64,000 nucleotides of DNA from a virus: the IMG/VR virus record IMGVR_UViG_3300026519_000009, positions 1 to 64,000 of that record, one strand, 5' to 3'. Of the stretch, positions 12,587 through 54,661 are shown one piece after another (the stretch's first letter is position 1; every line of letters begins with the position of its first letter). The notes beneath the pieces are model-generated. The model did not search any database. It was not told where the DNA came from and was given only the letters and a program-made list of their open reading frames with translations. The translations under genes and the position numbers were made by a program.

Positions 12587-15500
12587 GTGCCGAGTGATAA
12601 TAAAACAGATTATATGATAAAATTTATGGATTTACTGGAATTATTACCAGAGCCATATCAATCTGATGTTAATATAAGTGTAGTTAATAACCTTTTTAAT
12701 CGTTTTTTAACGAAAAAAGAGACGGTGCGCGTCTCTGGTTATATTGGTGTTGGTAATCAAAATGCTCTTACCCCTAGACGAATTAAAGAAAATGATATTC
12801 ATCGTCAAGCGTTTCAACTTCAACCAATATTATATGACAAAATTGGTACAATTGAACACATGGCATCGTGGAAGGATATTCAAAATGAAACGACACGACT
12901 TGGAATAAACATTGACGATTTTGCAACGTGGGGCGCAAGTGAAACCTTTAATTGGGTGCCACCAATTGATATCAATAAGATTATTAACTATCGTGACTAT
13001 TATTGGGTCGATACCGTAGGTAGTCAACCACAATATATTACCGTTCGTAGTCGCTGCGCAGTAGCGACAAGTCTGGCAAACTTTTGGGGGCAAATAATAA
13101 CACAATACGGTGAATTATTTCCAATAACTGAAATACGTGAGATTGACGACACCAGTGCATTACAAACATATTCTATTGTGTCGATTAATACAGGCACTGG
13201 TAATGTTGTTATTACAGGTGATGCCACAACCGATATTGTTAATGGTAATTTTTTTAACATATCATCAACATTAAACAACAATGGTACCTACCAAGTAAAT
13301 ATGGCACCGGTATATGATGGTGTTACAAACACTACAACATTAGACGTAAGTGGTTTAATTGCGGATGAAAATATTGGATTAGTAACACTTAGACGATATG
13401 ATAAGCTGGTGATTGGTCCAAATGACAATACACCTACCGGTGATTATAGTACGCTATTTGAAGAAGGGTTTGTTTTTTTTATGAGGCAACCAACAAACCC
13501 AGAACAAAATAATCAATTTGTAACGGTAATTAGTTCAACGTTTGACCCAAACAATGCAAACACAATAGTTAAGATCGGATTAACAACTACCGATAATACT
13601 GTGGCAGCTAGTAGTATGGTTTCATTGGTTGAACAAAATGCAATATATGTCGATGCCCGAAATTGTCAATGTGGCGTTGGGGTAGATGGCTGGGATGATG
13701 GTGTTTTATGGGACGATAACCCATCTAATCCAATATGGGGGGATGCGGAAGGTGCATTAGGGTCACCCATCCCTGATGGAATTTCGGATTATCAAAATTT
13801 AATTAATCGCATATCAAATGCCGGTCCACCTGCTTTGCCGGGAATTCAAAATGAATTATGGTTTGATACCATTGGTGATATATTATATCAATATGATACG
13901 GTAGGCGGTTGGAAGATCATTTGGAACTCTTTTAGTACATTACTATCCGATGTAACCGGACAAGTATTATGGGATTTATCGCAAAATTGCGACGAAGCCA
14001 TTCGTATACCAGCCATGGATCAATGGATTCTTGAAAATAAATGGGTTCATAAAAATGATATAACTAACTTTGCTTCGGTACGTAGAGCCACCCAACCTAT
14101 TATAGAATATGACTGGGACTTAGAGTTAAACGAATGGACATTTACCAAATATCGCTGGGGATACCGTAGTGAAACAAATGGTACCTTCATAGAAACAACA
14201 GAACTTCCACCTTTTATAGAATTAGAAGAAATAGTATGGTGGGAACTGGATACTACTGATATTACGAATAGTACTGTAATCCTTGACTCGCGTTATGGTG
14301 ATCAAAGTGCCTGTTTCGCAGCAAACACCCGATTTCATATTGGTAACACTATTATTAATGAAGTTGACTATGTTGAATATAAAAAACCGTCAATTGCCAG
14401 TATGTTCCCATATAGAACATATGTGAAATTTAAAACACCAATCGTAGGGTCAACCGGTGACTTTAGTATAGGAACCCCTAATAGTTTGTCATTAACACCA
14501 GTTGTAACAAAACAAGGTGATCTTTGGGGAGGATACGGTGTTCATTGGATATTTTTAGGCGCAAATGATACAGTACCTGTTCCACACCAAACGGATAATC
14601 CTGATGTTGCAATTCTGGATACTGCGTTGGTGTCTACTATTGGAAGTCCTCCTATATATGAAACACGCGAATCATTATATGCGCAAGAATTTCAATTATT
14701 AGCACCATCTACAACAATATTGGAATTAAGTAATATTGTTCCTACTAATGATACTAGATCATTACAAAGAAAGGCATTGTATAATTTCGATGATATTCGT
14801 GTTTATTTAAGCGATATCACAAATGGAAATATTGTTCGTCAATTCGGAACGTATGAAGAAATAGGAGAAGTTGTTGTCGATATTATCGGAATCGATGACG
14901 TATTAAACGAATTTATAATAGGTGAAGACTATTCAACATTATATACAGCAGGGGATACAATACGATTACAGGAAAATAATACGGTTGGTACACAAGACTA
15001 TACGGTTGCGGGCGGTGCGTCAAATCCTAATCGTATTCGCGTAACAACCGCGCTTGCCGGAATATCCATAACCGGACAAATAGTGAATATATCGAATCCT
15101 GTTACTACCGAATTATATCCAAATATCGATTTCGTAAATACACGAAATATTTCAATTTATGTTCGAGGGATACGCTTCTTAACCCCTGTGTTAGGCGGAC
15201 AAAATGTTACAATAGAAGTCGGTGAAGCATCAATAAATGAATTAGACCGTCATGCACTTAGAGTGCGCACTATTGAGGATGAAGCACAATATAATATTGT
15301 TGGTGACTTAGCTATTAGTACAATAAAATATAGAAAAGTTGAACAAGTAAAAACAAGTGACAATCAATATCCTTTATTTGATATTTTTACAGCAACGGGC
15401 GAAGCTGCAAATCGTGCCAATCCTATATTTGGATATAAAACGTCAAACACCGCTCCTATTAATCAAACAGGACTACGAATAGTTTTCGATGCAAGCACGC

Positions 15501-18500
15501 TGGTATATGAATTTGATCAATTTATTTTAGATGCAGATAATAGTGAATTATTTGCATATCGTGACTATTCTAATAAAAAAACAGATTTTTGGTATAATCC
15601 AGAAACAAATGAAATGTTGTTCTGGCACGGCACCGAATGGAGCAGTCGCACGGCGATGTCTGAGCATTATAGAAATGCTGTTATTAGTAGTATTGAACCG
15701 TCATTAATTGACCGCGCAATCAATGGCCTATATTGGTATAACACTACAACAAATACGCTATTTATTAGATCAATAGACCCAATATCCAATATTGGTACGT
15801 GGAATCCAATATTGGATATTGATACCACGACGACTGATACCAATTTACAAACAATATGGAAAGGCGGGTTGAACAATGATCAATATGTGCCTGAACGTGT
15901 TGATTGGTTAAATAGAACAAATAGTGAATATAATACTGAAATGTCTGCCTTTATTGACGGTAGAGTTAATACTTTATTGACGGGTGACACAACCCTAAGT
16001 ATCGCCGACGCAACAACGCAAGCATCCATTGATTGGTTTACTAGTCAGGAAAATGTGTTGTCACCGACCGGCATATGGGTCGGTGATTGGGAAATACCTG
16101 ATCCCTTATATCATAATAATTTACACGAAAATAAGAAATGCATTACAAGTAGGGACTTGTTAACACATTTCACCACCATTATTGAAAGTCAACCGACGAT
16201 TCCCGGATTTAATGGTGATAAAAACGCAATGTTCAATTTAATTCCAACGACGGGTGTTAATTTTGCACTAGGCGGTACAATAAAAGAATTCAATGATGGT
16301 TTCGATACTTTTCTATCTTCAACCTTCGTAAATAATGTAACACCTAGACGATTAATTGAGTTCGCGCATGATCAATATGAAAGTTTATTGAATAGCATTA
16401 AAGAAAGTTATCGGGCAAATGCGGTGCGCCTATTTACCGATTTATCCCCTAATAATATAGTAAACATATCTGGTTATATTTCAAATGAAATAATAGCTAT
16501 ACACGAGTTAAATGATGCGGCGGCATTTATATATGGGGATAGTACGACATTCAATGATATCCCCGGTGCCAATGATCTTGGTGTTCGGAATTGGATAGCA
16601 ACATTACCGTATTTGCGTCTATTGCATCGAAGATTGCCCGTTAGAATAATTAACGAGGTATTATCGCTGGATGAGATAATACATCACGATGGTCATCGGG
16701 GGGCATATTCATTAACCGATACTGCGGAAAATGTAATTGTTCAATTAATTATTAATACTGATGATAATCGAAATGGGATTGATACTTTAGGTAGAAATTC
16801 AATAGCAAACCCACCGAATAATATAGCTGATTTTGCTGCCGAATTTAATACCGATGCGAATAATCGCGGTGGTGTTTATTGGTGGAACACGACAACAAGT
16901 ATATTATATCGCTATACCGTAGCTGAATCTGGAACAAATACACCTATATTAGATTATCCTGATGGAACGCTATGGATGGATTTAACGCTTGGTAATGAAG
17001 TACTACGCATAAAATCAACAAGTACGAGTGGTGTGATATCTTGGGATGTCGCTGATGGATTATCGGTAGGCGATGGAAGATTTCATAATGGCACAACGGT
17101 TAATGATTTTAACACGGCAACAGTATCCACATGGCAAGAAGTTAACTTAAATAATTTATTGGGTGACCTTATATTCGAGCTTGAAACCCGTCTGTATAAT
17201 AATGCACCCAATAATCCGCAACTTAGCTATAATACCTCATTAGTGGAAACAACGTATCCGAATGACCACGCATTATATTTAGAGCAGGCATTTTTAGATC
17301 ATGTATCCCAACTAAATATACAAACCCCATATCAAAATACAGCGTTCAATATTTCTGATCCATTTACATGGAATTATAAGCATTCAGCAGGAGGCGGTGG
17401 GTTCGCTATACTCGAGGCGGATGGACTTACGAACTCTTTTTTAATATCGGGTAATCAATTATTCTTTTTTGATCCATGTTCGGCCTCCGCCACCGGATCA
17501 CCGATAACATATCCTGCATGTGTTCCAGGGGGGACAACAGCTACATTTTATATTAAAAACTCAGGCGGAAATGATGGAATTTGGACAACATTAAGTTCAA
17601 CCGTCGGTGATTTTACCGCATTCTATGATATATTAACCAATACCACCAGGATTTTTGTCCAAGGCAATGTGATGGATGATGCTACAGGTATTATTCATAT
17701 TGGATTATTACCAAGTCAAATATCATCAACAACGCCAAACAATCTAAATGATGGTTCGGAATCTGGTGGTGACTGGCGCGACTTGTATACCAAGTTATAC
17801 AATACACCATATCCAAATTTAGAACCATGGAAATTACAGGGCTATATCGATAAACCAACGTGGTGGGATGCGGAATATCTTAACACAAATGCATTACAAT
17901 GGGGCGACCGCGTATGGAAGTATAAGCACGGGTTTGAACTTATAAGTGCCGACAACTTAAGTAATGATAGTGTAGATGGTATACACGGTTCATTTAATAT
18001 TTCTGGAAACTTTAATACTGTTTTTACAACAGGTCATTCGTTTACCATAGATTCATCAATCGGATCACCGAATAACGATGGTACGTATATCACAGGTATG
18101 CGCGAAATAATTACTAATGTTAATATAGGTAGTGCTGGTACTGCATCTATAGAAATCGATGATGTCAGCAATTTAGCAACTGCGATATATCTACCGTCAA
18201 TGATATTTTCTGTAATTCAAACACCTGTTCTACCAGCAATAAATAATACAATTACAAAAACATATTCAATTACCAGCGTAAATAAAATAGGCTCCATATT
18301 TACAATAGCGGTAGCGGAAGAAATATTGGTTGGAGATATTATTCCAGCAACAAGTGTTATTAATGGAGCATTATACTTACCAACGTCCAACATCACTAAA
18401 GTGAAAATAGCTGGTGCCGTGACAACCAGTAGTGGGAATGGAAGACTAATAAAATCCGATAGTTTTGGACTTGGAATGTGGGAGAACATAAGGATTGGTG

Positions 18501-21500
18501 TAATTCCTCCTAACCGTGAATATCCAAATGGTATAGTTGGTGTCACCGGCAATCCATCAATAGATACATTAAATGGTTTGTCGGTACCTGATTTACCAAG
18601 ATTTAGTTACTTCAGTGTCAATATTGATAATAGTAATGTTAGTTCGGATGGAGGAATGACTACGTATGCACCTGATGGATTACTCCCTCCGTTTTGGGAT
18701 CATACCCAGCAATTTGGAACTACATTAATATCGTTCGATAATTTGATTCGAACAGTATTTTTTAACTTTAGCACAGAAATAATAACACCTAATATTGATT
18801 TTATATTTGGTGATGCCGGGCCAGTTGAATGGGAATGGAGAGTTTCATCACAATTTTTATATGATCAGTTAACTATAGCGTATAGAATTGATCCGGTCAG
18901 ATATGTGTCATCAACGTTCGGCTTCAATTTAACAACAATTGCTGGATTACAAATAGACCGTAATATAAGAAACACTCCCAGTCATACGCGAACTACATTT
19001 CATGGTGATATTGCAAATAATACACCAGTAGTAAGCAATGGAACGAATCAATGGTATGTCAATTTTAATCGTTTTACCGGTTATGACTCTAATTTTTCCG
19101 ATTTTAACCAGTTATGGACGCAATGGACCGCACCACTTAGTTACCAGTTTGCTTCGTTTATTGATACGCCATCTTTAAGTATTGGACATCGGTTTGTGTC
19201 AATTTCTGAGTTCGACTATAATATAGCGGCAAAACGCTCACCCGGTGTTAATGATTATTGGTTAGACGCATTTAATGTTAATATTATACAGATACCGTTT
19301 GATATTCAACGATATGATAATCAGTTGGAATGGCGATTTGAACTATCTACTAATATAAATATTAGTAGAGAAATCAACTATTACGATGTACGAAATTATC
19401 AATTCTATGCCAATCCTATAACAAATGAATGCTTGTTATACACATGGGAAATTGAGTCTGTAAATGCATTCAATAAAGAATTTACAATATTGGGCGATCA
19501 AACCTATGTGTTTTCCGCAGGAAGGGAATTCACAATTTCGACATCGAGTGGTAATGATGGTACATATACAACAACACGGGCAAGATATGATGTAAATTCA
19601 AACACCACTACAATAACCGTTAATTCCATAATTACATCAACTGTTGCGAATGGATTGATAACAGCAAAATATCGTTCTTATATGTGGGATACCGGTGATA
19701 GTATTTACCTGTCCACCGCTGAAACCCTTCCCATACCATTAAGGGGCGATAACGCAAATGGCCTAACCGAATATTTTATTATAAAAATATCTGATACCGT
19801 ATTTAAAATTGCAAATACTCCACAAGATGCAATAACAAATACCCCTATTGTAATTACATCAACAGGAAGGCGCGATCAATTCGTAGGCGAAATAACAAGC
19901 ACATTCCTTGCGCCTAACTCAACCACTAATTGGAGAATATATCGCATAGATGAATCATCTTCACGAAAATTTAATACACCATATCAAGTGCAAGGATTTC
20001 AAACACTTATTGATATAGTTCGTGGCTATGCAACATTTGCAAATGATGTTGGGTGGGTATTCAATGAAGACAACTCACTTCGTGATCCCGATACTACGCG
20101 AGTCGTAAATTGGCAGGTCGAATTGGAACGACTAATTACATATGCTTACGGTAATCGTCAATTGCGCAGAAGCATTAATGATAGGTATGAGGTATCCGTA
20201 AATTCATCAACCGATATTTGGACATTTATTGAACCGAATCAATCGTTTATAACGGGCGATATAATTACTGTATTATCTTCTAATTCTATATTTCCGGTGC
20301 CGATTGCAAATGGTCTCAATTACTTCATAATCCGAGATTCCATAACTACATTTAGAATATCTGCAACTAGGCAAGATGCGCTAAATGGTATAGCACTTAA
20401 TATTTCGGCATCAAGTGGCGTAGGAACATTACAAATATCAACACCGAATACCAACGCTAATATCATTCAGCCTTTTGAATTAAATGCGTTTAGAAATGCG
20501 GCATGGTTGAATACGCCTACCGGAATTGTTTCCAATGTAATTACCGGTCCAAGTGAAGATATTAGAACCAATCAAACTATTTTTAATCAGAATGGTCAAC
20601 AGATCAGCGAATCGCATTTGAGGGTGTATCGCCAAGATAAACAAACAAAAATACAAATAATAGATGTTGATAATCCGGTATCAAATAATAATAACCCATT
20701 ACTTTCACAAGAATATAGTAATATTAATTTAGGTGGATTGCATTTGTTTACCGATTCATACGAACACATCATGATATTCAACAATTATAATACTGATGGC
20801 GTATTGCTGTATGATCCATTTATTGGGTTAAATGTATCGAAGTATGAAATGTTATTCAATAAACAGCCAGAATTTCTACATAGACCATCGGTTGGTGGGT
20901 ATACTATTGAAACATTTTTCAATCAAGGTACAAATTTAACCGAAAATATAGAAGCAAGCATTGAGAATCTTAGGTTTGCACATGATACCTATACTAATTT
21001 AGAAAGTAATTTAATGACTACACATTCAAGATTATCATTGGGGTATGAAGGAATAACCGATTATTTACTTAATCTAAATCTTTCCGAAAAATCACAATTT
21101 ATTTTTTGGCGTGGTCTTATTCAGTATAAAGGTTCGCGCAATGCGGTACAAGCATTTACACATTCAAGACGGTTTATTGATGCACAGATTGACGACTTCT
21201 GGGCAATAAAAGTTGGTGAATTTGGTAGTGTAAAGGAAAAAGAATATCCTGAGATATTTGTAACAACTTCCGATGCGCGATCAAATGAGCTTCGCCTCGA
21301 ATTTATAGATAATGATGCATTAGATACAAGCGTAGAAAGTACATTTACGCCAATTAAACTATCAAACGAAGAACGATGGTATAACCAGCCTGATCAAGTG
21401 CATATTTTACGTGATAAAGGAAATGCATTATTTTTTGATATGATTGTGAATAATTCAATAGTATGTTCGTTAACCCCTGGATCGCCCTCTAACTTAATTG

Positions 21501-23632
21501 AATCACCGGGTACATTCAATAACAAACTATACATTCGACATGATCTAGATGCAGATGCAATTGCAATTACTCATTTTAATAACACAACCAATTTATTAGA
21601 AACGTTGGTATTGGGGGTTGACTATAATATTATTAACAATAACATAATTGAATATATTATTGGACCACCAAGAGATTCAATTACAATCTGGGGAATGTTA
21701 CAGAATAATGATGCACAATCACCTGCACGAATTATTGATCACGCCTCGGAAACGCAAATTTCTCCCATTCAATTCTTTGATCCGGCACGGGGTATACATT
21801 ATTCTAATGCTATTCATAATATTGATTTGTTGAATGATACCGATCCCGCGCAATATACGAATACCATTAAAAATCAACCAATGGGTTCACCAGCAACCAC
21901 AGTTATAAATTCCACAATTTGGGAAAAATCATTTATTGGAACGACTTGGTGGAACACCAATAATTTAGACTATGTTCCTTATTATAGTAAAGAAATGCTA
22001 CCTAACACAACCGAACGATTCCGCAATTGGGGTGCGTTGGCTGATTGGTCAACCGTTTCCATATTTGAATGGGTTGAGTCAAACGTTCCACCGGATGAAT
22101 GGGATATTCTAGCGTTAAGTGAAGAAGGTGATTTATCAATACCAGAACACATACGCAAGTCAGGAACCGCTCGGCGCGTGTTATTTGAACAAAATAATGC
22201 AGGGGGTTTTATTGTTGCAGTTGATAAAATCGAAGAACAATATGTGGCGACTGAAGGAACAGAAACAGCAACCACGTTTGAATTTTCAGTTCCAGTTGGA
22301 AACTTTAAAGAAACGGGTAGTCCGCTCATGTATATTGTTGATGTATATATTAATGGAAAATTATATAAAGAGAATGATATCTTAACCTTTCCATATATTG
22401 TCGATAAGGTAAACATTAAAGAAGCCGATATTATTCACTTCGTTCAACCGATTCCAACCGATCAGACTATAATTGATGCTGAAATAATAGCGGGTAATAT
22501 GCGACAGGAGTATGAATTTTCCAGAATAACAACCTTTAATGAAATAGGCACGGAAGTAACAACATATTATTTTTGGGTAGAAAATAAGAAAACTAGACCC
22601 ATTAATCGGAATCGTTCAATGTCAATATCTGAGGCCGCAACCCAATTAATAGACATTCCTTCGGCACATATGTTTTTTCAAGAAGTACGACCGACCGAAA
22701 CAATAACATTGGATGATACAATACTACCACGAACCGAATTACATACGGTAATTGGTGGTAGTCCGATAGCTACCTTTTATCCGACAGATTTGCCAATTGC
22801 GTCAACCACCAATCTTTTAGTGGAAGTTAATGGCGTGGATTTACCGAATAATGGTATATATTTTACAGTGGGGGGGTCGCCCAATGGAATTACAATGATA
22901 AACCCACTCCCAAGTGGTAACAATTTAATGGCAGGTGACATTATACGCATATCATATAATGGAGTGAATACCAATTCACTAATATTACCATATCGTCAAA
23001 CCCAATGTATTATTCGTGGATTGCAAGGTATAGTGAATGCGGATCGTAGATATACTATTAGGTTCACGCGAGACTTCACTTTGCGTGATAACTTAACTAT
23101 TGTTGATAATGATGAACATATACAATTAAACAACGTACACGAAGAATGGAAGTTATTCAGGGAAAGTCAGCAATTTAACATTGATCGATATATGTGGGAT
23201 AATATAACGGAATCCATTGTTAAATTTAAGCTATTGCAACCAAGCGTGCGCGTTCCATCATTTGAGCGCGAATTATATGATTTACAATACAACACTGATA
23301 CACAATATGGTCTGGAAGACGGACAAGCCTTCGTAAATGGTGAGTTGGCGCTGGGTAGCGTATTGGGATATTTAAATGATCCAAATGTGGACTTTTCGCC
23401 AATAGATATTAATGCCTTTTTTAATAACAATAGTTTTGATACACCTGCTGAAATAATTATTGCGATGGATACTATATATAATACATTTTTATTCACCGAT
23501 GTGAATCGAATATTCTTCTCTGTGTTGGCTGATGCTTTTAGTACAAAATCTAAATACCCAGGATTGTTTAAAACATCAATGGTAAGTTTACATGGGGTGC
23601 AACCATTTCAAACCGCGTTATTTGATGATTAA
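12587..23632 (+). CDS. Giant virion structural (baseplate-associated) protein, 3681 aa
   Basis: Uninterrupted ORF with GTG start and GGAG RBS inside the baseplate cluster; repeated beta-rich modules. Confidence 0.8.
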   Translation: MPSDNKTDYMIKFMDLLELLPEPYQSDVNISVVNNLFNRFLTKKETVRVSGYIGVGNQNALTPRRIKENDIHRQAFQLQPILYDKIGTIEHMASWKDIQNETTRLGINIDDFATWGASETFNWVPPIDINKIINYRDYYWVDTVGSQPQYITVRSRCAVATSLANFWGQIITQYGELFPITEIREIDDTSALQTYSIVSINTGTGNVVITGDATTDIVNGNFFNISSTLNNNGTYQVNMAPVYDGVTNTTTLDVSGLIADENIGLVTLRRYDKLVIGPNDNTPTGDYSTLFEEGFVFFMRQPTNPEQNNQFVTVISSTFDPNNANTIVKIGLTTTDNTVAASSMVSLVEQNAIYVDARNCQCGVGVDGWDDGVLWDDNPSNPIWGDAEGALGSPIPDGISDYQNLINRISNAGPPALPGIQNELWFDTIGDILYQYDTVGGWKIIWNSFSTLLSDVTGQVLWDLSQNCDEAIRIPAMDQWILENKWVHKNDITNFASVRRATQPIIEYDWDLELNEWTFTKYRWGYRSETNGTFIETTELPPFIELEEIVWWELDTTDITNSTVILDSRYGDQSACFAANTRFHIGNTIINEVDYVEYKKPSIASMFPYRTYVKFKTPIVGSTGDFSIGTPNSLSLTPVVTKQGDLWGGYGVHWIFLGANDTVPVPHQTDNPDVAILDTALVSTIGSPPIYETRESLYAQEFQLLAPSTTILELSNIVPTNDTRSLQRKALYNFDDIRVYLSDITNGNIVRQFGTYEEIGEVVVDIIGIDDVLNEFIIGEDYSTLYTAGDTIRLQENNTVGTQDYTVAGGASNPNRIRVTTALAGISITGQIVNISNPVTTELYPNIDFVNTRNISIYVRGIRFLTPVLGGQNVTIEVGEASINELDRHALRVRTIEDEAQYNIVGDLAISTIKYRKVEQVKTSDNQYPLFDIFTATGEAANRANPIFGYKTSNTAPINQTGLRIVFDASTLVYEFDQFILDADNSELFAYRDYSNKKTDFWYNPETNEMLFWHGTEWSSRTAMSEHYRNAVISSIEPSLIDRAINGLYWYNTTTNTLFIRSIDPISNIGTWNPILDIDTTTTDTNLQTIWKGGLNNDQYVPERVDWLNRTNSEYNTEMSAFIDGRVNTLLTGDTTLSIADATTQASIDWFTSQENVLSPTGIWVGDWEIPDPLYHNNLHENKKCITSRDLLTHFTTIIESQPTIPGFNGDKNAMFNLIPTTGVNFALGGTIKEFNDGFDTFLSSTFVNNVTPRRLIEFAHDQYESLLNSIKESYRANAVRLFTDLSPNNIVNISGYISNEIIAIHELNDAAAFIYGDSTTFNDIPGANDLGVRNWIATLPYLRLLHRRLPVRIINEVLSLDEIIHHDGHRGAYSLTDTAENVIVQLIINTDDNRNGIDTLGRNSIANPPNNIADFAAEFNTDANNRGGVYWWNTTTSILYRYTVAESGTNTPILDYPDGTLWMDLTLGNEVLRIKSTSTSGVISWDVADGLSVGDGRFHNGTTVNDFNTATVSTWQEVNLNNLLGDLIFELETRLYNNAPNNPQLSYNTSLVETTYPNDHALYLEQAFLDHVSQLNIQTPYQNTAFNISDPFTWNYKHSAGGGGFAILEADGLTNSFLISGNQLFFFDPCSASATGSPITYPACVPGGTTATFYIKNSGGNDGIWTTLSSTVGDFTAFYDILTNTTRIFVQGNVMDDATGIIHIGLLPSQISSTTPNNLNDGSESGGDWRDLYTKLYNTPYPNLEPWKLQGYIDKPTWWDAEYLNTNALQWGDRVWKYKHGFELISADNLSNDSVDGIHGSFNISGNFNTVFTTGHSFTIDSSIGSPNNDGTYITGMREIITNVNIGSAGTASIEIDDVSNLATAIYLPSMIFSVIQTPVLPAINNTITKTYSITSVNKIGSIFTIAVAEEILVGDIIPATSVINGALYLPTSNITKVKIAGAVTTSSGNGRLIKSDSFGLGMWENIRIGVIPPNREYPNGIVGVTGNPSIDTLNGLSVPDLPRFSYFSVNIDNSNVSSDGGMTTYAPDGLLPPFWDHTQQFGTTLISFDNLIRTVFFNFSTEIITPNIDFIFGDAGPVEWEWRVSSQFLYDQLTIAYRIDPVRYVSSTFGFNLTTIAGLQIDRNIRNTPSHTRTTFHGDIANNTPVVSNGTNQWYVNFNRFTGYDSNFSDFNQLWTQWTAPLSYQFASFIDTPSLSIGHRFVSISEFDYNIAAKRSPGVNDYWLDAFNVNIIQIPFDIQRYDNQLEWRFELSTNINISREINYYDVRNYQFYANPITNECLLYTWEIESVNAFNKEFTILGDQTYVFSAGREFTISTSSGNDGTYTTTRARYDVNSNTTTITVNSIITSTVANGLITAKYRSYMWDTGDSIYLSTAETLPIPLRGDNANGLTEYFIIKISDTVFKIANTPQDAITNTPIVITSTGRRDQFVGEITSTFLAPNSTTNWRIYRIDESSSRKFNTPYQVQGFQTLIDIVRGYATFANDVGWVFNEDNSLRDPDTTRVVNWQVELERLITYAYGNRQLRRSINDRYEVSVNSSTDIWTFIEPNQSFITGDIITVLSSNSIFPVPIANGLNYFIIRDSITTFRISATRQDALNGIALNISASSGVGTLQISTPNTNANIIQPFELNAFRNAAWLNTPTGIVSNVITGPSEDIRTNQTIFNQNGQQISESHLRVYRQDKQTKIQIIDVDNPVSNNNNPLLSQEYSNINLGGLHLFTDSYEHIMIFNNYNTDGVLLYDPFIGLNVSKYEMLFNKQPEFLHRPSVGGYTIETFFNQGTNLTENIEASIENLRFAHDTYTNLESNLMTTHSRLSLGYEGITDYLLNLNLSEKSQFIFWRGLIQYKGSRNAVQAFTHSRRFIDAQIDDFWAIKVGEFGSVKEKEYPEIFVTTSDARSNELRLEFIDNDALDTSVESTFTPIKLSNEERWYNQPDQVHILRDKGNALFFDMIVNNSIVCSLTPGSPSNLIESPGTFNNKLYIRHDLDADAIAITHFNNTTNLLETLVLGVDYNIINNNIIEYIIGPPRDSITIWGMLQNNDAQSPARIIDHASETQISPIQFFDPARGIHYSNAIHNIDLLNDTDPAQYTNTIKNQPMGSPATTVINSTIWEKSFIGTTWWNTNNLDYVPYYSKEMLPNTTERFRNWGALADWSTVSIFEWVESNVPPDEWDILALSEEGDLSIPEHIRKSGTARRVLFEQNNAGGFIVAVDKIEEQYVATEGTETATTFEFSVPVGNFKETGSPLMYIVDVYINGKLYKENDILTFPYIVDKVNIKEADIIHFVQPIPTDQTIIDAEIIAGNMRQEYEFSRITTFNEIGTEVTTYYFWVENKKTRPINRNRSMSISEAATQLIDIPSAHMFFQEVRPTETITLDDTILPRTELHTVIGGSPIATFYPTDLPIASTTNLLVEVNGVDLPNNGIYFTVGGSPNGITMINPLPSGNNLMAGDIIRISYNGVNTNSLILPYRQTQCIIRGLQGIVNADRRYTIRFTRDFTLRDNLTIVDNDEHIQLNNVHEEWKLFRESQQFNIDRYMWDNITESIVKFKLLQPSVRVPSFERELYDLQYNTDTQYGLEDGQAFVNGELALGSVLGYLNDPNVDFSPIDINAFFNNNSFDTPAEIIIAMDTIYNTFLFTDVNRIFFSVLADAFSTKSKYPGLFKTSMVSLHGVQPFQTALFDD

Positions 23633-23740: not shown

Positions 23741-25759
23741 ATGACTGATAATATTAAAACATTAGACCCAGTACAGGGATTAATTGATTATGTAAATGAT
23801 GTAAAACCATTTCATACTAAAGTTATAGAAACGTTGGTAGAATATGTTGGGTTTGAATCGGTTAATACTACCATAAGTGAACAATACATAATGGAAATCG
23901 GGTTAAATTATGGATATAATACACCCATAAGCGAATGTATTAATGCGATAGACGGACAAACCATTATTAATACTACGATACCAGTTCGTTCCAATATTAC
24001 GTTTATTGGCAGCCCACCGCTGCAATTATATGATTTTAATGATACTATAGTGTATGTTAATGGCATATTACAAGCGGAGTCATTAGACGGTGGCAGCCCA
24101 CCCACGGGTGATTACACTATATCCGGTCCAAATCAAATAACGTTTACCAATCCTCTTATGGATGGTGATGAGGTAAAAATATATACGTTTACACATTTAC
24201 AACAAGCACCAGATCAATGCTTGTTGGGTGGGTATGGTACAAATGGATTTGACTTTCCAACTAATATTCCAGTATTGTCGCCTGATATGTCAATATCATT
24301 ACCGGCATTCCCAGCAATTAGCGCCAATACACTAATTGTGTTGGGTGATCAAACAAAATTATTCAATCCAAATAAAAATTTAACGTTTCAATTAAATAGC
24401 TATATTGAAAATCCAATACTTGGAACTATGGTTAGTGATGCTAGCAATACAGGTTCTTTTATTGTAATTAACGCAACGGTAACGCCACGCACACTGGTGA
24501 CAACAGAATATACTACCATAACACTTTCCGGTTTGACATTGATACCACCAGCAGTGCCCGCTGATCCAAATGAAAAATATGTTTCCATAATATCACTCGG
24601 CGGAATATCATATAACGGTATATTATCCTATAGTAATACCTTCGAGACAATAAATGCTGGTTCGCCACCGAATGAGGTACAAGTGCCGGACGAAGGGCAT
24701 ATATCCATACCTATTGTGGGTATTAATGGTGGTTCGCCCGGTTCGTTTGTAATATCTGGTGATTTTAGAGGGAGTAATCTATTTGAACAAGATACCTTTA
24801 TTGTATCAAACTCAATAGGTAATGATGGTACATATGTTATATCTAATATATCATATGATATGGTAATGAATGAAACAACATTAACCACCTCAAGTACTAT
24901 CACCGAGTTAACGATTAGTGGAAATATATCGTTAATAATACCGGCAAATGTATTTTTAATTTCAGGCGATTACACAGAATTTTTTAAACAAGGAACGGTA
25001 ATTCGTGTACTATCAGGGAGTGTAATTGGTATATACACAACATTAATATCCTTTTTCAACAATAACAAAACATACATTAGGGTATTTGAAGATATTATTA
25101 ATGATCCCGGCGCTGATATAATAGGAACAGTTACATCACCCGATGGAATTATAGTGAGCGGTGATCAATCAGGAACATATCTTACAGGTACCGCGTTTAA
25201 TATATCGTCATCGCTGTTAAATAATGGTAGCTTTACCACAACCACTAATTCTACATATGATATAATAAATGATGAAACTACAATCCTTGTCAATGAGGCG
25301 TTAGATACAACGGATATTACCGGGAATATCCATGAATTTATAAGCGGTAACTTAGAAATCCTATCACCAGGATTTGGACAAACTTCACTTATTTGCGAAG
25401 AACTTCCAGACACTTTAATTAAAATAGGATTCATCGATACTCTTACAGTACAAACTACAACGGGTGGATCACCAAGTATACCAATGTTTCAATATGTTAT
25501 TATAAATACGTCTAATACAATTGGAAGCCCAATAGGCGTGAATTCAATATCAGTGCATGGGGATGCAACAAATGACATTATTAATGGAAACACGATAACT
25601 ATTATACATTCTACTTTTTCACCAAGTAATGATGGAATATATACGATATCATCCAACCCAACATATAATATCGGTGAGAATTTTACAACGTTTAATGTGT
25701 TAGAAGGTATAAATAATGTAGGTAATTCAGGTGGTTGGATTGAAGGAATTTTGCAATAA
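23741..25759 (+). CDS. Virion structural protein
   Basis: IDYVNDVKPFHTK N-terminal motif; shares NDGTY modules with the giant protein. Confidence 0.7.
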   Translation: MTDNIKTLDPVQGLIDYVNDVKPFHTKVIETLVEYVGFESVNTTISEQYIMEIGLNYGYNTPISECINAIDGQTIINTTIPVRSNITFIGSPPLQLYDFNDTIVYVNGILQAESLDGGSPPTGDYTISGPNQITFTNPLMDGDEVKIYTFTHLQQAPDQCLLGGYGTNGFDFPTNIPVLSPDMSISLPAFPAISANTLIVLGDQTKLFNPNKNLTFQLNSYIENPILGTMVSDASNTGSFIVINATVTPRTLVTTEYTTITLSGLTLIPPAVPADPNEKYVSIISLGGISYNGILSYSNTFETINAGSPPNEVQVPDEGHISIPIVGINGGSPGSFVISGDFRGSNLFEQDTFIVSNSIGNDGTYVISNISYDMVMNETTLTTSSTITELTISGNISLIIPANVFLISGDYTEFFKQGTVIRVLSGSVIGIYTTLISFFNNNKTYIRVFEDIINDPGADIIGTVTSPDGIIVSGDQSGTYLTGTAFNISSSLLNNGSFTTTTNSTYDIINDETTILVNEALDTTDITGNIHEFISGNLEILSPGFGQTSLICEELPDTLIKIGFIDTLTVQTTTGGSPSIPMFQYVIINTSNTIGSPIGVNSISVHGDATNDIINGNTITIIHSTFSPSNDGIYTISSNPTYNIGENFTTFNVLEGINNVGNSGGWIEGILQ

Positions 25760-26096: not shown

Positions 26097-27284
26097 ATGC
26101 ACAGTAATATACCAGTTTTAATATCAGGACATGTCCTGATTGAAGATGATCTTGGAAACGTTTTGTTAGATAAAGAGAATGCCGTTCACCCACAAAATAT
26201 GTCAAGAATAATTGCACGTGCATTAAGTAACGAAAGTAATTTTCGCATTAATCGTATTGCATATGGGAACGGTGGGACAAATATAGATGCCGCATTTAAT
26301 ATCACATTTAACCCACCTAATGATGGCCAGCCACCCGATGTGCAAACGTGGGAATCCCGATTATACAACGAAACTTATTCCGAAATAGTAGATGATAGCA
26401 ATACAGCATTGTTGGGTACCGATCCAGGTAGTGCCGGTCCAAGCGTAGGAACACGTCCAGGAGGAGGGGCAAATCCAAGTGGTGACCCAGCATCAATCAC
26501 ACATGTTTCCGGCCCCGGAACACGAAGTAGGGAACTTGGTCTAACTTCTGAGGTTCTAATAGTATCAGTATTAAATCCATCCGAACCAACCGGTCAGTTT
26601 GCAAATGATCAAACATTAAGCAATATTAATTCACCGTTTACATTCGATGAATTGGCGCTATTTACAACTGGTCAACAAGCCGCCGCCTCATCCGGTTCAC
26701 AAGATATTGATGTTGGTAATAAAACTTCAACCGATCTTACTAATCTAGTAATGGGTACCACATATACCTTTCAAATCGCCGTAGATGCAGCTACCTCCGC
26801 GCCCATATCATATACCACAGTCTCATTAACACCACCAACCGCCACCACCACCTTCGGTGAACTATGCGAAGCATTAAATAATATTACGGGTGCTACAGGT
26901 ATTGCGTGGGGTGTATCAACACCACTACCCAGCTTAACCACTTGTTCAATTACAGATACAACATTTGGTACGTACCCATCAATTGAAGGGCTACAGACCT
27001 TTGGCTTTTTAAGGTTTACTAGTGGAACCGCTGGAAATACATCGAAAATTAGGGTTATTGGGGATGGTAGTCCTACCGATTTGTTCGTTGGTTTAGCAGG
27101 CACAGTGGTAACACCAGCAGCCGATGGAAATGATAAGGGTGTTCAAAATAACGCAACCAATCCATCAACAGAACAAGAGCGAATGTTAACACATTTAATA
27201 TTCGCACCTATAATTAAGGCGGCCAATAGAACACTTACGATAACGTATACACTCACGGTTGCGGTTGGACGAACGCAAACCTAA
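26097..27284 (+). CDS. Virion structural (baseplate/tail) protein
   Basis: ISGHVLIEDD...KENAVH; FDELALF; MLTHLIFAPIIKAANRTLTITYTL; ATAAATA upstream. Confidence 0.7.
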   Translation: MHSNIPVLISGHVLIEDDLGNVLLDKENAVHPQNMSRIIARALSNESNFRINRIAYGNGGTNIDAAFNITFNPPNDGQPPDVQTWESRLYNETYSEIVDDSNTALLGTDPGSAGPSVGTRPGGGANPSGDPASITHVSGPGTRSRELGLTSEVLIVSVLNPSEPTGQFANDQTLSNINSPFTFDELALFTTGQQAAASSGSQDIDVGNKTSTDLTNLVMGTTYTFQIAVDAATSAPISYTTVSLTPPTATTTFGELCEALNNITGATGIAWGVSTPLPSLTTCSITDTTFGTYPSIEGLQTFGFLRFTSGTAGNTSKIRVIGDGSPTDLFVGLAGTVVTPAADGNDKGVQNNATNPSTEQERMLTHLIFAPIIKAANRTLTITYTLTVAVGRTQT

Positions 27285-30362: not shown

Positions 30363-31384
30363 CCGTTGTTAAAATAGTAACAAAATGTAACAAGTGTTTT
30401 TTGTTACTGATTATTCACAATGTCAACGAGCTTGCCAAGATGATCTTTGGACTGACGGCTCTCTTTTGTGCGTTTTTGGCCTCCTTGCAACGCATGGCGA
30501 CCATACTCTTTTAAATTATTTGCTGCATTAAAATCACGATCCATATTAACACCACAATCACAACTATACAACCGTTCCGACAATGTTAAATCGTTTTTTA
30601 ATTGTCCGCAGCCACTACATACCGCGATTGCTTCCTTTCTTCTTTCGTGCCATTTCCGTTGCAACCGTGCCAACCGATTAAGATTGGATTTAAGGCATTG
30701 ATTAGCTGGGAAAATTGTCCCATTGCTAATCACTGCCAATTCTTTAATTCCTAAATCAACGCCACCAATTGCTTCGCGGTTATGATCCTGTGGATCATAT
30801 TCGTTGGTTTCAACCAAGATCGATGCGAAGTATTTTCCGGCGTGTTTACTAATAGTAACCTGCTTGGTCTGCCCGGCAAATCGTAATCGTTGCCGCATTT
30901 TTATCTTGGTCTTTAACTTTTCAATCCGTAGTTCTCGGCCAGCCACATCAAACTTTTCCGCTTCGCGCAAGGCAAATGAGTCACGAACACCCCGTCGTTT
31001 GAATCGGGAAAAGCCCGGTGTCTGTCCCTTCTTCACCCGACGAAAGAAATGACTAAAGGCATTATCCAAATCATCAATCGCATTGCGCGTAACACGCGAT
31101 GACACCTCATTGTACCATGGAAACGTAGGTCTAATAACTCTCATGAAATGCTGATAACCAGCAGCTTTCGACCACTTATTCTCTGGATGACTAAAATGCG
31201 CCAGCAATTGATTATAGCAATGCCGCCGATGACCACAGGCCATATCCAAATATTGGATATGGCCTGCTGTAGGTCGCAATTCAATTTTGTGTGCTAGTAA
31301 CATAGTAGTATTTATCTACAAAATGTAACACGACTTGTTACATTTTGTCAAGTTTAGTTACATTTTAATCAACTGTTGGCAGCC
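30363..31384 (-). mobile_element. IS607-like non-autonomous tnpB element inserted at a GG in the nrdB leader
   Basis: Subterminal AAAATGTAAC repeats at both ends; GG at both junctions; removal restores AATAATAAGG-TAAATCATA-ATG. Confidence 0.7.
30404..31303 (-). pseudogene. tnpB: tnpB (third family) with deletion of the RuvC-II region
   Basis: HKIELRPT N-terminus; GVDLGIKELA; jumps directly to CSGCG...DRDFNAANN. Confidence 0.85.
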
Positions 31385-40094: not shown

Positions 40095-41693
40095 TTAAAT
40101 AAATAATAATTTCCCAATAGTCCGACCTTCTACCGCAGCGTTAAGTGTGTCAGTTATTTGAAAACTAATATCATTAGAATTAATTACAGTGGGATTTAAC
40201 ACCCTTGCCGTACCATTATACAATACTAATAGTGCAAATCCTGGTTCGGTAGATGCTAAATTATGAGTGATTGTAAAATTCCCTACACCAATATATGTAG
40301 TTGTCCATCCAATAGGCAAGGTATTATTAGTCATTACCGCCCCTGTTGTATCAACATCAATAAAAAAAGATTCGGAATGTAACGCAGTTGTTGTATCTAC
40401 ATATGACTTCGAGGCCGCTTCATCGGGTGCTACTGGTAATAGTGGTACCCCAGTAATGGTTCCACCGCCAGTTATAACAATATCAGAACCATTTGTTATC
40501 TGTAGTTGACCACCGTCTAATGTAAACGTAGCGGCCAAATCCATTGTATCACCACTTCTACTAATTTTTAAGTCAGAATATTGTTTTGTCGCGAATTCCG
40601 CATCAAGCACAGGTGTTATTCCTTGTACTGAACCTGTAAATGTTGCAGCATTCCCCGTGATATTTCCTGTAAAAATAGGATTATTTAAAGGAGCTTTTTC
40701 TACGTCTAACTCATTAATTGCTGCTTGTATATCAATTGCACTTATATTTCCAGCTGGGACATTAGTCAAATCACTTGCGGTATGTGTATGTCCTACGCGC
40801 GAAATACCTTCTACCGTTAATGTGTTAGTACTGGGTGGTGAACCTGGAACGAGTACCGTAAATTCTAAAGTAGTATCGGATACTACAAATGGACCGGGTG
40901 TCGCGGCAACAAAGTTAGCACTATTTAATACACCATCACCTGAACTTACACCACCGGTTAATACAGAAAAATCAACATATGCCTTTGATGCAACCTCATC
41001 CGCTAATGTAGGGAGGGCGGGTATGCCTGTGATTATACCACCAGAAATAACTAAATTTCCAGCAATAACACCTCCCGATAAATTTAATTTATTATTAAGT
41101 TGTAACTGTACATTGCTTGTAATTCCTTCTAATTGATTAACATCACTTGCTGTGAGTGTAGTCGGTGAACCAGTCAGTGATAAATTGTCTAAGAACGTGT
41201 TTTGTATGGGTGATAAGTGTAATGCATTATCTGAAATATGGGTATCCACATATTGTTTTGGTACTGCACCCAAATTCGTAGTTGGATTACCAAACAATAA
41301 TAGTTCACCTTGCATTGGTGTTGAACCTGTGGCGGTTATTATTCCATCCCACCCTGGACCACCAGCGGTATCATCGGGTGAATTATTCCGTATAAACAAG
41401 GAACTACTAGGCGGACTACCGTTATTAGTAGAATACCATAATTGTCCTTCTATAGAATTAACCGGGCGTGTTGGACTAGCAAAGTTTTCTATCATATATA
41501 CAAAATTTTGCGCAACCGCTTCCCCAAAATTAGATAAGCCACGGCCATATAACTTCAATGTGGTTCTTGCAGTAACAGCATTTTCTATGAGCGTGGGATT
41601 GGATGGACTAATCGGACCATTTGTTGTAAATGGAAAAATAGAAAATCCTGGTTTAGTCGTATCCGAAAATAATAAGTTATATGTTAGAGCCAC
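40095..41693 (-). CDS. Tail-fibre-like virion protein
   Basis: LYGRG...GEAVAQNFVYMIENFA...GQLWY; repeated A(S/T)KxY(V/S)D fibre motifs. Confidence 0.7.
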   Translation of the reverse strand: MALTYNLLFSDTTKPGFSIFPFTTNGPISPSNPTLIENAVTARTTLKLYGRGLSNFGEAVAQNFVYMIENFASPTRPVNSIEGQLWYSTNNGSPPSSSLFIRNNSPDDTAGGPGWDGIITATGSTPMQGELLLFGNPTTNLGAVPKQYVDTHISDNALHLSPIQNTFLDNLSLTGSPTTLTASDVNQLEGITSNVQLQLNNKLNLSGGVIAGNLVISGGIITGIPALPTLADEVASKAYVDFSVLTGGVSSGDGVLNSANFVAATPGPFVVSDTTLEFTVLVPGSPPSTNTLTVEGISRVGHTHTASDLTNVPAGNISAIDIQAAINELDVEKAPLNNPIFTGNITGNAATFTGSVQGITPVLDAEFATKQYSDLKISRSGDTMDLAATFTLDGGQLQITNGSDIVITGGGTITGVPLLPVAPDEAASKSYVDTTTALHSESFFIDVDTTGAVMTNNTLPIGWTTTYIGVGNFTITHNLASTEPGFALLVLYNGTARVLNPTVINSNDISFQITDTLNAAVEGRTIGKLLFI

Positions 41694-44558: not shown

Positions 44559-44562
44559 AATA

Positions 44563-45022: not shown

Positions 45023-45685
45023 CTATGGGCATACCGCCTTGCCATCCGTACCACCAGCAACAGGTCTACGTTCACACACTTCAGACGTACTAGGCGTGCC
45101 ACTCTGATCCAATAAGTTAAATACCCGCAATGGTGTAACGCAATCATCATCGTATACAGTTAATGTGTTTGCGGTAGAATCAACACGGGTGCGGTTCGTT
45201 TCATATTTACACAATAATTCTACAATATCGGTTACCGCCTGAATGTCCAAAAATAATTGTGTAGTGTTCGCATTAATCATGCTTAATGTAGCACCAGTGG
45301 AGCCGGTTATTTGATGGTCAGGGAGCAATACTTCGTCAAGAACATTTGGTTCAATTTTTGCGGTTTGATACCGGTCTATATTCGATACAGAGGGACCAGC
45401 ATCCGTCCGTATAACGTAATTACTACTTTGGTCATACCCGAGTAATGGGGTAAAGTCAAAGGTGTAGAAACCATCTTGTGATGGTGGTGAACCAGTACCG
45501 ATAATTTCAAGCATAACACCATCCGTAGCTTGTCCTGTGCCATTGGGGGCACCAACAATCAGCGTTTGAGTCGATCCATTTACTTCCCATATACGAACCC
45601 GAGGATATCCGGGGGTGGTTGTTCCTATGTTTATTGCGGGAACGCCTGCATCTGAAAAGAAGCTATTAATTTCCGTTTGTGCCAT
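45023..45685 (-). CDS. Probable virion protein
   Basis: 220 aa; ATAAATA upstream; contains GSPP. Confidence 0.6.
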   Translation of the reverse strand: MAQTEINSFFSDAGVPAINIGTTTPGYPRVRIWEVNGSTQTLIVGAPNGTGQATDGVMLEIIGTGSPPSQDGFYTFDFTPLLGYDQSSNYVIRTDAGPSVSNIDRYQTAKIEPNVLDEVLLPDHQITGSTGATLSMINANTTQLFLDIQAVTDIVELLCKYETNRTRVDSTANTLTVYDDDCVTPLRVFNLLDQSGTPSTSEVCERRPVAGGTDGKAVCP

Positions 45686-50240: not shown

Positions 50241-50249
50241 TTTTTGAAT

Positions 50250-51766: not shown

Positions 51767-51778
51767 GTGTATATTTAT

Positions 51779-51842
51779 CCAAGTTGTCGGAATACCACCA
51801 AATTAGCAAGCTGAATTTTGAAGTGGTATTCTGGCAACTTGG
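51779..51842. mobile_element. Mini-element with two left ends
   Basis: TTTAT|CCAAGTTGTCGGAATACCAC...GTGGTATTCTGGCAACTTGG|ATAAA. Confidence 0.85.
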
Positions 51843-51844
51843 AT

Positions 51845-51882
51845 AAAAAAAGCAGTGATATACCGAAAAATATCACTGCTTT
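51845..51882 (-). terminator. Intrinsic terminator
   Basis: AAAAAAGCAGTGATAT...ATATCACTGCTTT. Confidence 0.7.
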
Positions 51883-51906
51883 GGTTTAAACAACCACCGG
51901 TTGTCG

Positions 51907-52173
51907 CTAGTCGGCGGAGGGAGAATCTTCTGCGTCAGCAGAAGATTCTCCCTCCGCACTAAGCTCTGCACGTACTTTATTGATAATTTGTTGCGAAAGT
52001 GTTTCTTTTGCCGCAATATATCGAGTCAATTCATCCCGTACCACCACTTCCTGCCGTTGCCAATCATTATACATTTCGACCAATCCTTGAATTTCTTCAC
52101 TCAGACTATCAACCGCATATGGCTTTTCATCAATTGTAAGTACCTTAATATCCACTACTTTTTGCATCTTCAA
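51907..52173 (-). CDS. Small acidic hypothetical protein
   Basis: GGAG RBS; terminator downstream. Confidence 0.6.
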   Translation of the reverse strand: MKMQKVVDIKVLTIDEKPYAVDSLSEEIQGLVEMYNDWQRQEVVVRDELTRYIAAKETLSQQIINKVRAELSAEGESSADAEDSPSAD

Positions 52174-52254
52174 TCTCCTAATATTATAATTATATATTCA
52201 ACGCTTTATTTTACCACTGTATTGCTACAAATATCAATCTTTTTTTTTCATTTA

Positions 52255-53574: not shown

Positions 53575-53591
53575 TTTTTATTATTTTTTAT

Positions 53592-53650
53592 CCAAGTTGC
53601 TGGAATACCACTTCCAAATCGGCGATCTGATTTGAAACCGACCACTTCAA
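53592..53650 (+). mobile_element. Palindromic mini-element copy
   Basis: TTTAT|CCAAGTTGCTGGAATACCACTTCCAAATC...CACTTCAA. Confidence 0.8.
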
Positions 53651-53653
53651 TTT

Positions 53654-54661
53654 CTAAATATTTCGTATAGCGGGATATATAGTTTTTATAGCTGCCTCAT
53701 CGATGAAAAATTCACCATTATCGTAAACCAGTGCAAATTGATTCATTGTTGGGGTTATATCAGTAACATCTACATATATACCGGTATCCTTATCTACCGT
53801 AGCAAAGGGTGGATTTGACATAAGCAACAACACCTCATTTTTCTCTATACTTCTGGTATTCGGCGGACTACCCGAACATTCGGTTATGGTATCATATGTA
53901 AACGTAGAACCATTACCAACAATATCATCTTGTATTGATTGATATATCCCTTGATAGCTCCGCACCGTATATATTTTACCCTTAATGACCACACTATCAA
54001 AATCACTCCATGGTGATACCGAATTAAGCAAGGATTCGCTTACATTTGAATACAGGTGCTGTTCCGTATTTCCCGTTGCGGTAGTAAAGGATACCATTAT
54101 TCCGACATTTGCGCAAGTGCCTATGGTAGGGACTCGCGTGGCGATAGTGATTTCGCCACCAATGGAAATTTGTCGGCGCGACCGTATGGAGGCTGATTCT
54201 ATAGTAGTGGAAGATAATATATCGGGGGGGGACTGTCTAGCCACAAGCTGTGCAACCCCAGACCATTGACGATCAAATACCAACATAATATTATTTGAAT
54301 CGACTATTATGACATCTGTCGGTGATATTTCAACCATATTATTAATATCCGTTTCTGTTGGTATATTAACAAATACCGAAATTGCGGGCGTGGTACCAAG
54401 ATTATGTGGAATAGTCCATGTGGAGCGTGCAATAACTTGTGTATGATCATATAAAACACGACGGGGAAGCCACTCGTCCAGTCCAAATACGGGGGTTGAT
54501 ACACCAGCTTGGGTAAAGTCGGACATTAAATCAATTTGATACAATGAACCACGACAACCATGCGTAATAGTACAACGATTTATATTTTCAATACCATCGA
54601 TGATACGAACGTATTCCTTTTCCCGTTTACACACATCGCATCTATATAAAACAACTGCCAT
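53654..54661 (-). CDS. Probable virion protein
   Basis: N-terminal Cys motif (CDVC...CTITHGC); WTIPHNLG module; GSPP. Confidence 0.6.
   Translation of the reverse strand: MAVVLYRCDVCKREKEYVRIIDGIENINRCTITHGCRGSLYQIDLMSDFTQAGVSTPVFGLDEWLPRRVLYDHTQVIARSTWTIPHNLGTTPAISVFVNIPTETDINNMVEISPTDVIIVDSNNIMLVFDRQWSGVAQLVARQSPPDILSSTTIESASIRSRRQISIGGEITIATRVPTIGTCANVGIMVSFTTATGNTEQHLYSNVSESLLNSVSPWSDFDSVVIKGKIYTVRSYQGIYQSIQDDIVGNGSTFTYDTITECSGSPPNTRSIEKNEVLLLMSNPPFATVDKDTGIYVDVTDITPTMNQFALVYDNGEFFIDEAAIKTIYPAIRNI

Follow-up and report, generated by a model that had tools for sequence, protein, structure and literature searches.

Proteins encoded in a 64,000-nucleotide stretch of viral DNA (IMG/VR virus record IMGVR_UViG_3300026519_000009, positions 1 to 64,000; hereafter the window) contain the tripeptide Gly-Ser-Pro (GSP in the one-letter code) far more often than their composition predicts. 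The window covers the first 64 kb of a viral contig of 76.6 kb (37% G+C). CheckV places this contig at 24% completeness; it is part of the genome of an uncultured jumbo myovirus, a relative of Xanthomonas phage XacN1. The tripeptide is exact at the protein level, sits in loops rich in insertions and deletions, turns over between relatives, and is present or absent clade by clade. Because of this combination, we read GSP as a tag on outer tail proteins that is recognized in trans, most plausibly by an enzyme that modifies serine, and we put the probability of this reading at roughly 0.55.

GSP enrichment in the window

Genes were taken as mechanical longest open reading frame (ORF) calls, which gave 52 ORFs with 17,858 amino acids (aa) in the window. 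These contain 25 copies of GSP where 3.45 are expected from composition (Poisson p 6.5e-14), and the excess persists against a first-order Markov expectation of 5.3 (p 6e-10). GSP is by far the strongest tripeptide in the window; the runner-up, AGG, reaches p 3e-6. The original prediction, made from the letters of the sequence, had counted 9, 6, 3, 1, 1, and 1 copies in six ORFs, against one or two expected. Our recount was identical and the recomputed expectation was 1.6-1.7 (21 copies in 5835 aa against 1.64 from the pooled composition, or 1.72 from the composition of each protein), so that the proposed enrichment survives both corrections. The form GSPP accounts for 8 of these 21 sites. The six carriers are as follows:

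12587..23632, + strand: 3681-aa giant protein, encoded directly after the baseplate wedge gene; 9 GSP (0.75 expected), with first bases at 13760, 14642, 17495, 18062, 21479, 21884, 22316, 22757, and 22874
23741..25759, + strand: 672-aa tail-fiber-like protein with a conserved N-terminal anchor and stacked small beta modules; 6 GSP (0.33 expected), starting at 24008, 24092, 24659, 24731, 25466, and 25523
40095..41693, - strand: 532-aa virion structural protein (phrog_14394); 3 GSP (0.27 expected) at 41412-41420, 41163-41171, and 40836-40844
26097..27284, + strand: 395-aa protein conserved in XacN1-like jumbo phages; 1 GSP at 27066-27074
45023..45685, - strand: 220-aa protein; 1 GSP (within TGSPP) at 45485-45493
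53654..54661, - strand: 335-aa protein adjoining the DnaB-like helicase gene; 1 GSP at 53864-53872

The single sites in the last three proteins are not significant alone, and their place in the virion, as implied in the original prediction, is putative, although their counts hold. Four further copies lie outside the six carriers, one in the large subunit of ribonucleotide reductase (RNR) and three in two small ORFs with leucine-rich-repeat-like (LRR-like) repeats; both cases are treated below. The 1065-aa baseplate wedge, the 513-aa hub, and a 654-aa fiber-like protein of the window carry no GSP.

Distribution among related phages

GSP is the top-ranked tripeptide in nine contigs, including the one that holds the window. 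We refer to these as tagged; G001 is complete and most of the others are 11-43% complete:

G000 (own contig): 26 GSP, 4.3 expected
G001 (complete, 363.5 kb): 86 GSP, 14.9 expected
G002: 46 GSP, 10.0 expected
G003: 23 GSP, 6.7 expected
G004: 75 GSP, 6.4 expected
G006: 55 GSP, 3.3 expected
G007: 19 GSP, 3.3 expected
G010: 16 GSP, 2.7 expected
G024: 28 GSP, 3.7 expected

Ten other relatives, pooled (626,460 aa), show no excess, with 119 copies against 112 expected. Individual untagged genomes lie at expectation (G005, 14 against 14.8; G011, 19 against 19.4; Ralstonia phage RsoM2USA, 15 against 16.7), the ratio is about 1, with no excess, in G018, G019, G020 (19 against 13.9), G022, and G023, and the excess in G008 and G009 is not significant. 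About 40 more distant loci, pooled, contain 57 copies where 53.4 are expected.

The difference holds ortholog by ortholog, with 2-20 copies in tagged genomes against 0-2 in untagged ones. Orthologs of the giant protein have 2-14 in tagged relatives and 0-2 in untagged relatives, and those of the 532-aa protein 6-20 and 0-1, respectively. Homologs of the 672-aa protein reach 19 copies against 0.5 expected. Among the carriers with a single site, orthologs of the 395-aa protein in tagged relatives mostly have 0-1 copies, and the ortholog of the 220-aa protein has two in G004 and one in G002. The loss of sites can be followed within the fiber family. A homolog that is 54% identical to the 672-aa protein (P0003) has no GSP at all: three of the positions read GAP or GGP, and in the remaining three the motif is lost through substitutions or a deletion, whereas two homologs of similar divergence (P0004 and P0005) keep five or six of the six sites.

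A FastTree phylogeny of the giant protein, with supports given as SH-like (Shimodaira-Hasegawa-like) values and with G006 and G024 not placed, groups the seven tagged genomes that have the gene in one clade with 100% support. G010 is basal in this clade, and the untagged G005 and the pair G008 and G009 are nested within it. The simplest history suggested by this tree would be one gain of the tag and two whole-genome losses.

In the complete genome G001, 72 of the 86 copies are concentrated in 13 proteins with 11% of the residues. The carriers that can be named are a tail fiber, a tail collar/fiber protein, a virion structural protein, the baseplate wedge, the tail sheath, and the head-tail adaptor, and the major capsid protein has a single copy. 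Since the capsid is nearly free of GSP and the wedge, hub, and 654-aa fiber-like protein of the window have none, the tag marks part of the tail exterior rather than the whole virion. The earlier designation of the carriers as virion proteins is thus apt for fibers, the 532-aa structural protein, wedge, sheath, and adaptor, taking the window and G001 together, but too broad as a general description.

Exactness of the tripeptide

The signal lies in the protein and not in the DNA. GSP sites in the window use all four glycine codons, all four proline codons, and four of the six serine codons, drawn from both serine families, and this heterogeneity rules out a DNA-level motif. TCT and TCC are missing at GSP serines, which is a general Ser-Pro codon-pair bias found at Ser-Pro sites outside GSP as well.

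Composition of the loops is likewise ruled out as the cause by a permutation control. The nine tagged contigs contain 374 copies of GSP against 55 expected, while the five other orders of the same residues (GPS, SGP, SPG, PGS, and PSG), with an identical expectation of 55, are each found 31-93 times. Similar tripeptides are also close to expectation in these contigs (GTP, 81 against 60; GAP, 48 against 55). In a pooled set of loci, GSP is found 155 times against 14.2 expected, compared with GTP 17 against 17.3, GDP 17 against 14.1, and GNP 11 against 13.0; all other GxP, xSP, and GSx tripeptides are near expectation there, with a maximum of 1.6-fold. The preference for serine over threonine is a sequence statistic, given by the GTP and GSP counts of this pooled set. 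Finally, the mean flank identity between GSP sites is 1.5-1.7 per 20 residues, compared with 1.3-1.4 for random windows from the same proteins, and flanks this unrelated rule out duplication of repeats as the origin of the sites.

Placement in variable loops and turnover

The 672-aa protein, modelled with AlphaFold from a 30-sequence alignment (mean predicted local distance difference test score, pLDDT, 72), forms a chain of small beta modules. Each of its six GSP sites falls between strands, and four are in segments whose pLDDT is below 50. A Foldseek search with this model returned only weak matches, to phage baseplate proteins. In an alignment of ten giant-protein sequences, 95% of 56 GSP sites touch columns in which gaps make up 30% or more, against a background of 31% (p 1e-23), and in the fiber family all 300 of 300 sites are at columns adjacent to insertions or deletions (indels), against 56%. 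Placement between strands and in indel-rich loops is compatible with surface exposure of the sites, which is predicted from the model and the alignments.

Many of the sites occur in no more than one or two sequences. Between tagged phages they are nevertheless retained somewhat more often than average tripeptides (for G001 and G004, 6 of 14 GSP against a fraction of 0.28). Copies may also stand in tandem (GSPVGSPP, GSPIFGSP, GSPLGSP). The loop insertion pointed out from the sequence of the giant protein, FTIDSSIGSPNNDGTY at residue 1826 compared with SSGNDGTY at residue 2323, was found as described, with SIGNDGTY in the 672-aa protein as a further form for comparison. The tail sheath of G001 (318091-319920; L067:18091-19920:+) shows the clearest recent gain. 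An insert of about 20 residues there holds three GSP, including a tandem GSP-(I/L)-VYV duplication, and is missing from the 79%-identical sheath of G004. At another site, GSPP was created by substitutions and a one-residue insertion.

Interpretation and alternative explanations

We propose that selection would keep GSP on the fibers, the giant baseplate-attached protein, the wedge, and the sheath of one uncultured jumbo-phage clade. In variable surface loops, new copies would be created by short insertions or by substitutions, and they would persist only where something reads them, decaying genome-wide once the reader is gone. That a trans-acting reader exists is what we infer from the pattern; its identity and chemistry are our guess. 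The likeliest reader would be a serine-modifying enzyme that acts in the host cytoplasm while the tail is being assembled or earlier, with O-glycosylation as the leading candidate chemistry and phosphorylation or another serine chemistry as possibilities, and the outcome would be a modified tail surface. A more specific version, in which a serine-specific system, most likely of O-glycosylation, coats the fibers, sheath, and baseplate, with sites gained by loop insertion and lost genome-wide together with the writer, is held more tentatively, at somewhat short of an even chance. The original prediction had proposed a surface-exposed recognition site for O-glycosylation, phosphorylation, or a decoration protein. 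The recognition site is supported by the exact and serine-specific tripeptide, the variable loops, the turnover, and the all-or-none spread, but no result supports a choice among the three functions.

An unlikely alternative is a structural habit of this lineage, with GSP forming tight turns or capping strands in the beta-rich tail proteins and with no reader involved. The sites often lie just before a beta strand, they recur at three loop positions of a small NDGxY module, P0003 retains G-x-P (as GAP or GGP) at some of its positions, and there is a weak flank preference for small residues at -1 and for proline at +1. Equivalent turn formers, however, are not enriched, as the counts of GTP in the nine contigs and of GDP and GNP in the pooled loci show, and orthologs of the same fold in G005, G008, G009, G011, RsoM2USA, and XacN1 do without GSP. 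Furthermore, the motif extends across unrelated folds (sheath, wedge, adaptor, and fibers), and its sites are in optional insertions and not at conserved structural positions.

GSP might instead be a non-covalent docking motif, providing many weak contacts for a chaperone, a prolyl isomerase, a decoration protein, or a component of the host surface. The exactness, predicted exposure, and on/off distribution apply equally to this explanation, which we nevertheless consider distinctly improbable: three residues with almost unconstrained flanks offer very little for a protein to bind specifically, none of the genes considered as a partner follows the trait, and tandem sites one to five residues apart would be hard to bind independently.

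Phosphorylation of the GSP serines by a phage-encoded PrkA (YeaG-like) is very unlikely. The gene belongs to a PrkA-DUF444-SpoVR trio (243921-248744 of G001, L064:3921-8744) that occurs in G001, G002, G003, and G006, all tagged, with an unusually high conservation of 67-89% identity, and that was not found in the untagged G005 and G011-G013, which are 90-100% complete. PrkA consists of an AAA domain and a PrkA C-terminal domain, which Pfam names a serine protein kinase domain, and it is rare, with 17 of 50,697 records of the phage collection containing it. Against this, two untagged phages carry the genes, RsoM2USA the whole trio (genes 28-30) and G020 PrkA only, and the trio may simply have been inherited with the clade. 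The kinase activity of PrkA is also disputed, and a role as a protease has been proposed.

The remaining explanation, an artefact of loops rich in Gly, Ser, and Pro, of repeats, or of ORF miscalls, was tested and rejected and has virtually no probability left, because, although the carriers are rich in loops and contain repeats and the ORF sets are mechanical calls, the permuted orders lack the excess, the Markov correction leaves it in place, the flanks are unrelated, and identical ORF calling on the untagged relatives gives a ratio of 1.06.

Search for an enzyme that might read the tag

Several results weigh against a trans-read tag. As the original prediction had stated for the window, there is no recognizable protein-modifying enzyme in the window, nor is there one in the whole 76.6-kb contig. 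Contig G000 has no match to glycosyltransferase family 2 (GT2; PF00535), the GT1-family domain PF00534, GT9 (PF01075), prolyl hydroxylase (PF13640), or PrkA. Pfam and PHROGs searches with its larger ORFs returned only proteins of nucleotide metabolism, replication, structure, and transposons. GT2, PF00534, and PF13640 have no match in the tagged genomes G000-G004, Pkinase has none in G001-G017 (a search that covered these genomes and not G000), and the glycosyltransferases and carbamoyltransferase of XacN1 have no homologs in the contig or in G001. In a gene-content contrast between tagged and untagged genomes, no gene of the complete tagged G001 tracks the trait; what remained were small ORFs, mostly without a named function, and one DUF488 gene in a nucleotide-metabolism context. 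The presence of the PrkA trio in RsoM2USA and of PrkA in G020, both without GSP excess, weakens that candidate writer and shows that PrkA does not suffice for the tag. Gene presence and absence are, however, weakly sampled in this contrast, as most tagged contigs are 11-43% complete. The reader, if it exists, may be encoded by the host, may be a shared enzyme that differs in its specificity, or may lie in unsampled parts of the genomes.

The same difficulty applies to a 447-aa protein with tetratricopeptide repeats (TPR) and a GT9 fold, a candidate protein glycosyltransferase on the basis of its predicted structure. Its gene is present in the tagged G001 and G024 and adjoins a sulfotransferase gene, in clusters (342691-346438 of G001, L069:2691-6438; L202:7155-11341) of one or two sulfotransferase genes, two small ORFs, and the gene itself. 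The model (pLDDT 93) has ten TPR helices followed by a transferase domain. Foldseek ranks the TPR-bearing O-glycosyltransferases SPINDLY and OGT first, with a probability of 1.00 and TM-scores of only 0.28-0.37, and the transferase domain alone aligns best to GT9 (3tov, Z 16.7; WaaF, Z 15.5; WaaC, Z 15.2; TibC, Z 15.2), with a root-mean-square deviation from TibC of 3.2 over 240 residues. Its invariant Asp207, in an IGD motif, aligns by offset with what we take to be the catalytic Asp of WaaC. The family has 676 matches in metagenomic contigs, many of jumbo-phage size. The gene does not predict the tag, because it is also found in six untagged genomes (G011, G018-G020, G022, and G023), of which G018-G020 and G022 have the sulfotransferase as well and G011 and G023 the TPR gene only. 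It was not found in the G000 contig or in G005, an untagged and near-complete member of the clade. Most of 51 IMG/VR loci with this gene show no GSP excess within their 20-kb surroundings, and, like the six untagged genomes, they weigh against it as the writer.

A 45%-identical TPR and GT9-fold gene occurs in a set of near-identical IMG/VR contigs (L329-L335 and L344; 36-69 kb). These show a weak GSP excess nearby (5-6 copies against 1.0-1.6 expected, p about 0.003-0.007) and may represent a second, independent tagged lineage.

XacN1 bears on the proposed tag in two ways. At least two glycoproteins have been reported in its virion (PMC5852040), which speaks for a modification in this group of phages, and its fiber region shows no GSP excess, which speaks against GSP as the signal. 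The XacN1 tail module includes a GT9-family gene, ORF328 (L002:19292-19960), between the genes for the giant protein and the homolog of the 395-aa protein.

Comparison with known modification systems

We found no description of a GSP tag in the literature on GSP motifs or sequons and on virion glycosylation in jumbo phages. Mycobacteriophage virions are reportedly O-glycosylated, with the glycans on C-terminal parts of capsid and tail-tube subunits. A tag read by a serine-modifying enzyme would resemble that system in that particle proteins are modified post-translationally in the host cytoplasm to give a coated virion surface. It would differ in its targets, an internal tripeptide in loops of fiber, sheath, and wedge with an almost untagged capsid, and in its genetics: the mycobacteriophage transferase genes are in the phage genome, whereas here no transferase tracks the trait and none is in the 24%-complete contig.

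Known sequons include N-x-S/T in N-glycosylation and D-(S/T)-(A/I/L/V/M/T) in the O-glycosylation of Bacteroidota. GSP shares with them a three-residue rule, placement in loops (here predicted to be exposed), and positions that are gained and lost at a maintained density. It is, however, another motif, restricted to serine, and it would be read in another compartment, as virions assemble in the cytoplasm.

We know of no GSP-like sequon for the bacterial autotransporter heptosyltransferases (BAHTs), the family of TibC and AAH. Acting in the cytoplasm, these enzymes modify numerous serines in the loops of a surface protein that is folded and rich in beta structure, which matches the serine-only GSP and its beta-rich carriers. 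The 447-aa phage protein departs from them in having an N-terminal TPR domain in place of the dodecamer-forming parts, and it is also present in untagged phages and absent from the contig. A serine-only rule does have a precedent, since TibC, of the GT9 fold, modifies serines and not threonines (PMC4358343); the word "consensus" was not found in the text of that paper.

The 447-aa protein of G001 also recalls GT41 enzymes (OGT, SPINDLY, and XCC0866 of Xanthomonas) in its layout of TPR repeats followed by a nucleotide-sugar transferase domain. It differs in the low TM-scores given above and in a catalytic domain that is closer to GT9. To our knowledge, the sequence preferences of OGT are not GSP.

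Should GSP prove to be a modification signal, phage particles would have their first sequon defined by sequence, and modified sites would be predictable from sequence in uncultured phages. A coated tail surface would then affect adsorption and host range as well as resistance to proteases or host defences. Sister lineages with and without the tag are natural, ready-made controls. Even if its role is only structural, an exact tripeptide switched on and off across a genome is an unusual case of motif selection at the level of the proteome.

GSP in other protein families and other features of the contig

Some GSP sites belong to motifs of particular protein families. In the window these are:

31436..33793, - strand: RNR large subunit; 1 GSP at 32984-32992
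55705..56166, - strand: 153-aa LRR-like ORF; 1 GSP at 55927-55935, within a recurring L-K/T-G-S-P-x-E repeat motif
58858..59358, - strand: 166-aa LRR-like ORF; 2 GSP at 59152-59160 and 58963-58971, with the repeat motif in common with the 153-aa ORF

A paper on phosphate specificity in RNRs is said to use the term "G-S-P motif", and we infer that the RNR site is this motif of the family and stands outside the tag. The 153-aa and 166-aa ORFs are small paralogs with Cys- and Asn-rich LRR-like repeats that have L-(K/T)-G-S-P-x-E in each repeat, and their GSP is probably likewise the family's own motif. In our reading, the two sites of the 166-aa ORF make up the single G000 pair with similar flanks in the flank comparison. 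Among the relatives, a PAAR repeat (GSPxVxxN...) accounts for three GSP in a 393-aa protein of G010. Here too GSP is inside a family motif, but one that covers only a handful of the relatives' sites and none in the window.

Other tripeptides with extreme excesses occur in G002, G018, G020, G022, and G023. They include collagen-like triplets (GPQ/PQG, GNQ/NQG, and GIQ/IQG) as well as DGT, SPP, and PPP, and are probably driven by repeats.

The nearest named phages to the contig are Xanthomonas phages XacN1 and Xoo-sp13 and Stenotrophomonas phages CM1 and RAS14, with terminase identities of 47-50%. The structural genes of the window encode the baseplate wedge, the 3681-aa protein directly after it, fiber-like proteins, and the baseplate hub; non-structural genes encode RNR, thymidylate kinase, a phosphoribosyl pyrophosphate (PRPP) synthetase-like enzyme, and the DnaB-like helicase. 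The part of the contig beyond the window encodes the terminase, a head-tail adaptor, and a tail-tube-like protein. A gene of the IMP dehydrogenase/GMP reductase family (5420-6499, + strand; Pfam E 7e-65) adjoins other nucleotide-metabolism genes. An IS-type (insertion sequence) transposase (30404-31303, - strand) is 63-71% identical to copies in metagenome-assembled genomes of Thiotrichaceae, Chromatiaceae, and Endozoicomonadaceae, a sequence relationship that hints at Thiotrichaceae- or Endozoicomonadaceae-like Gammaproteobacteria as the host of the phage. A 182-aa ORF with a Cas12f1-like TNB domain (3153-3701, + strand) is probably a remnant of TnpB.

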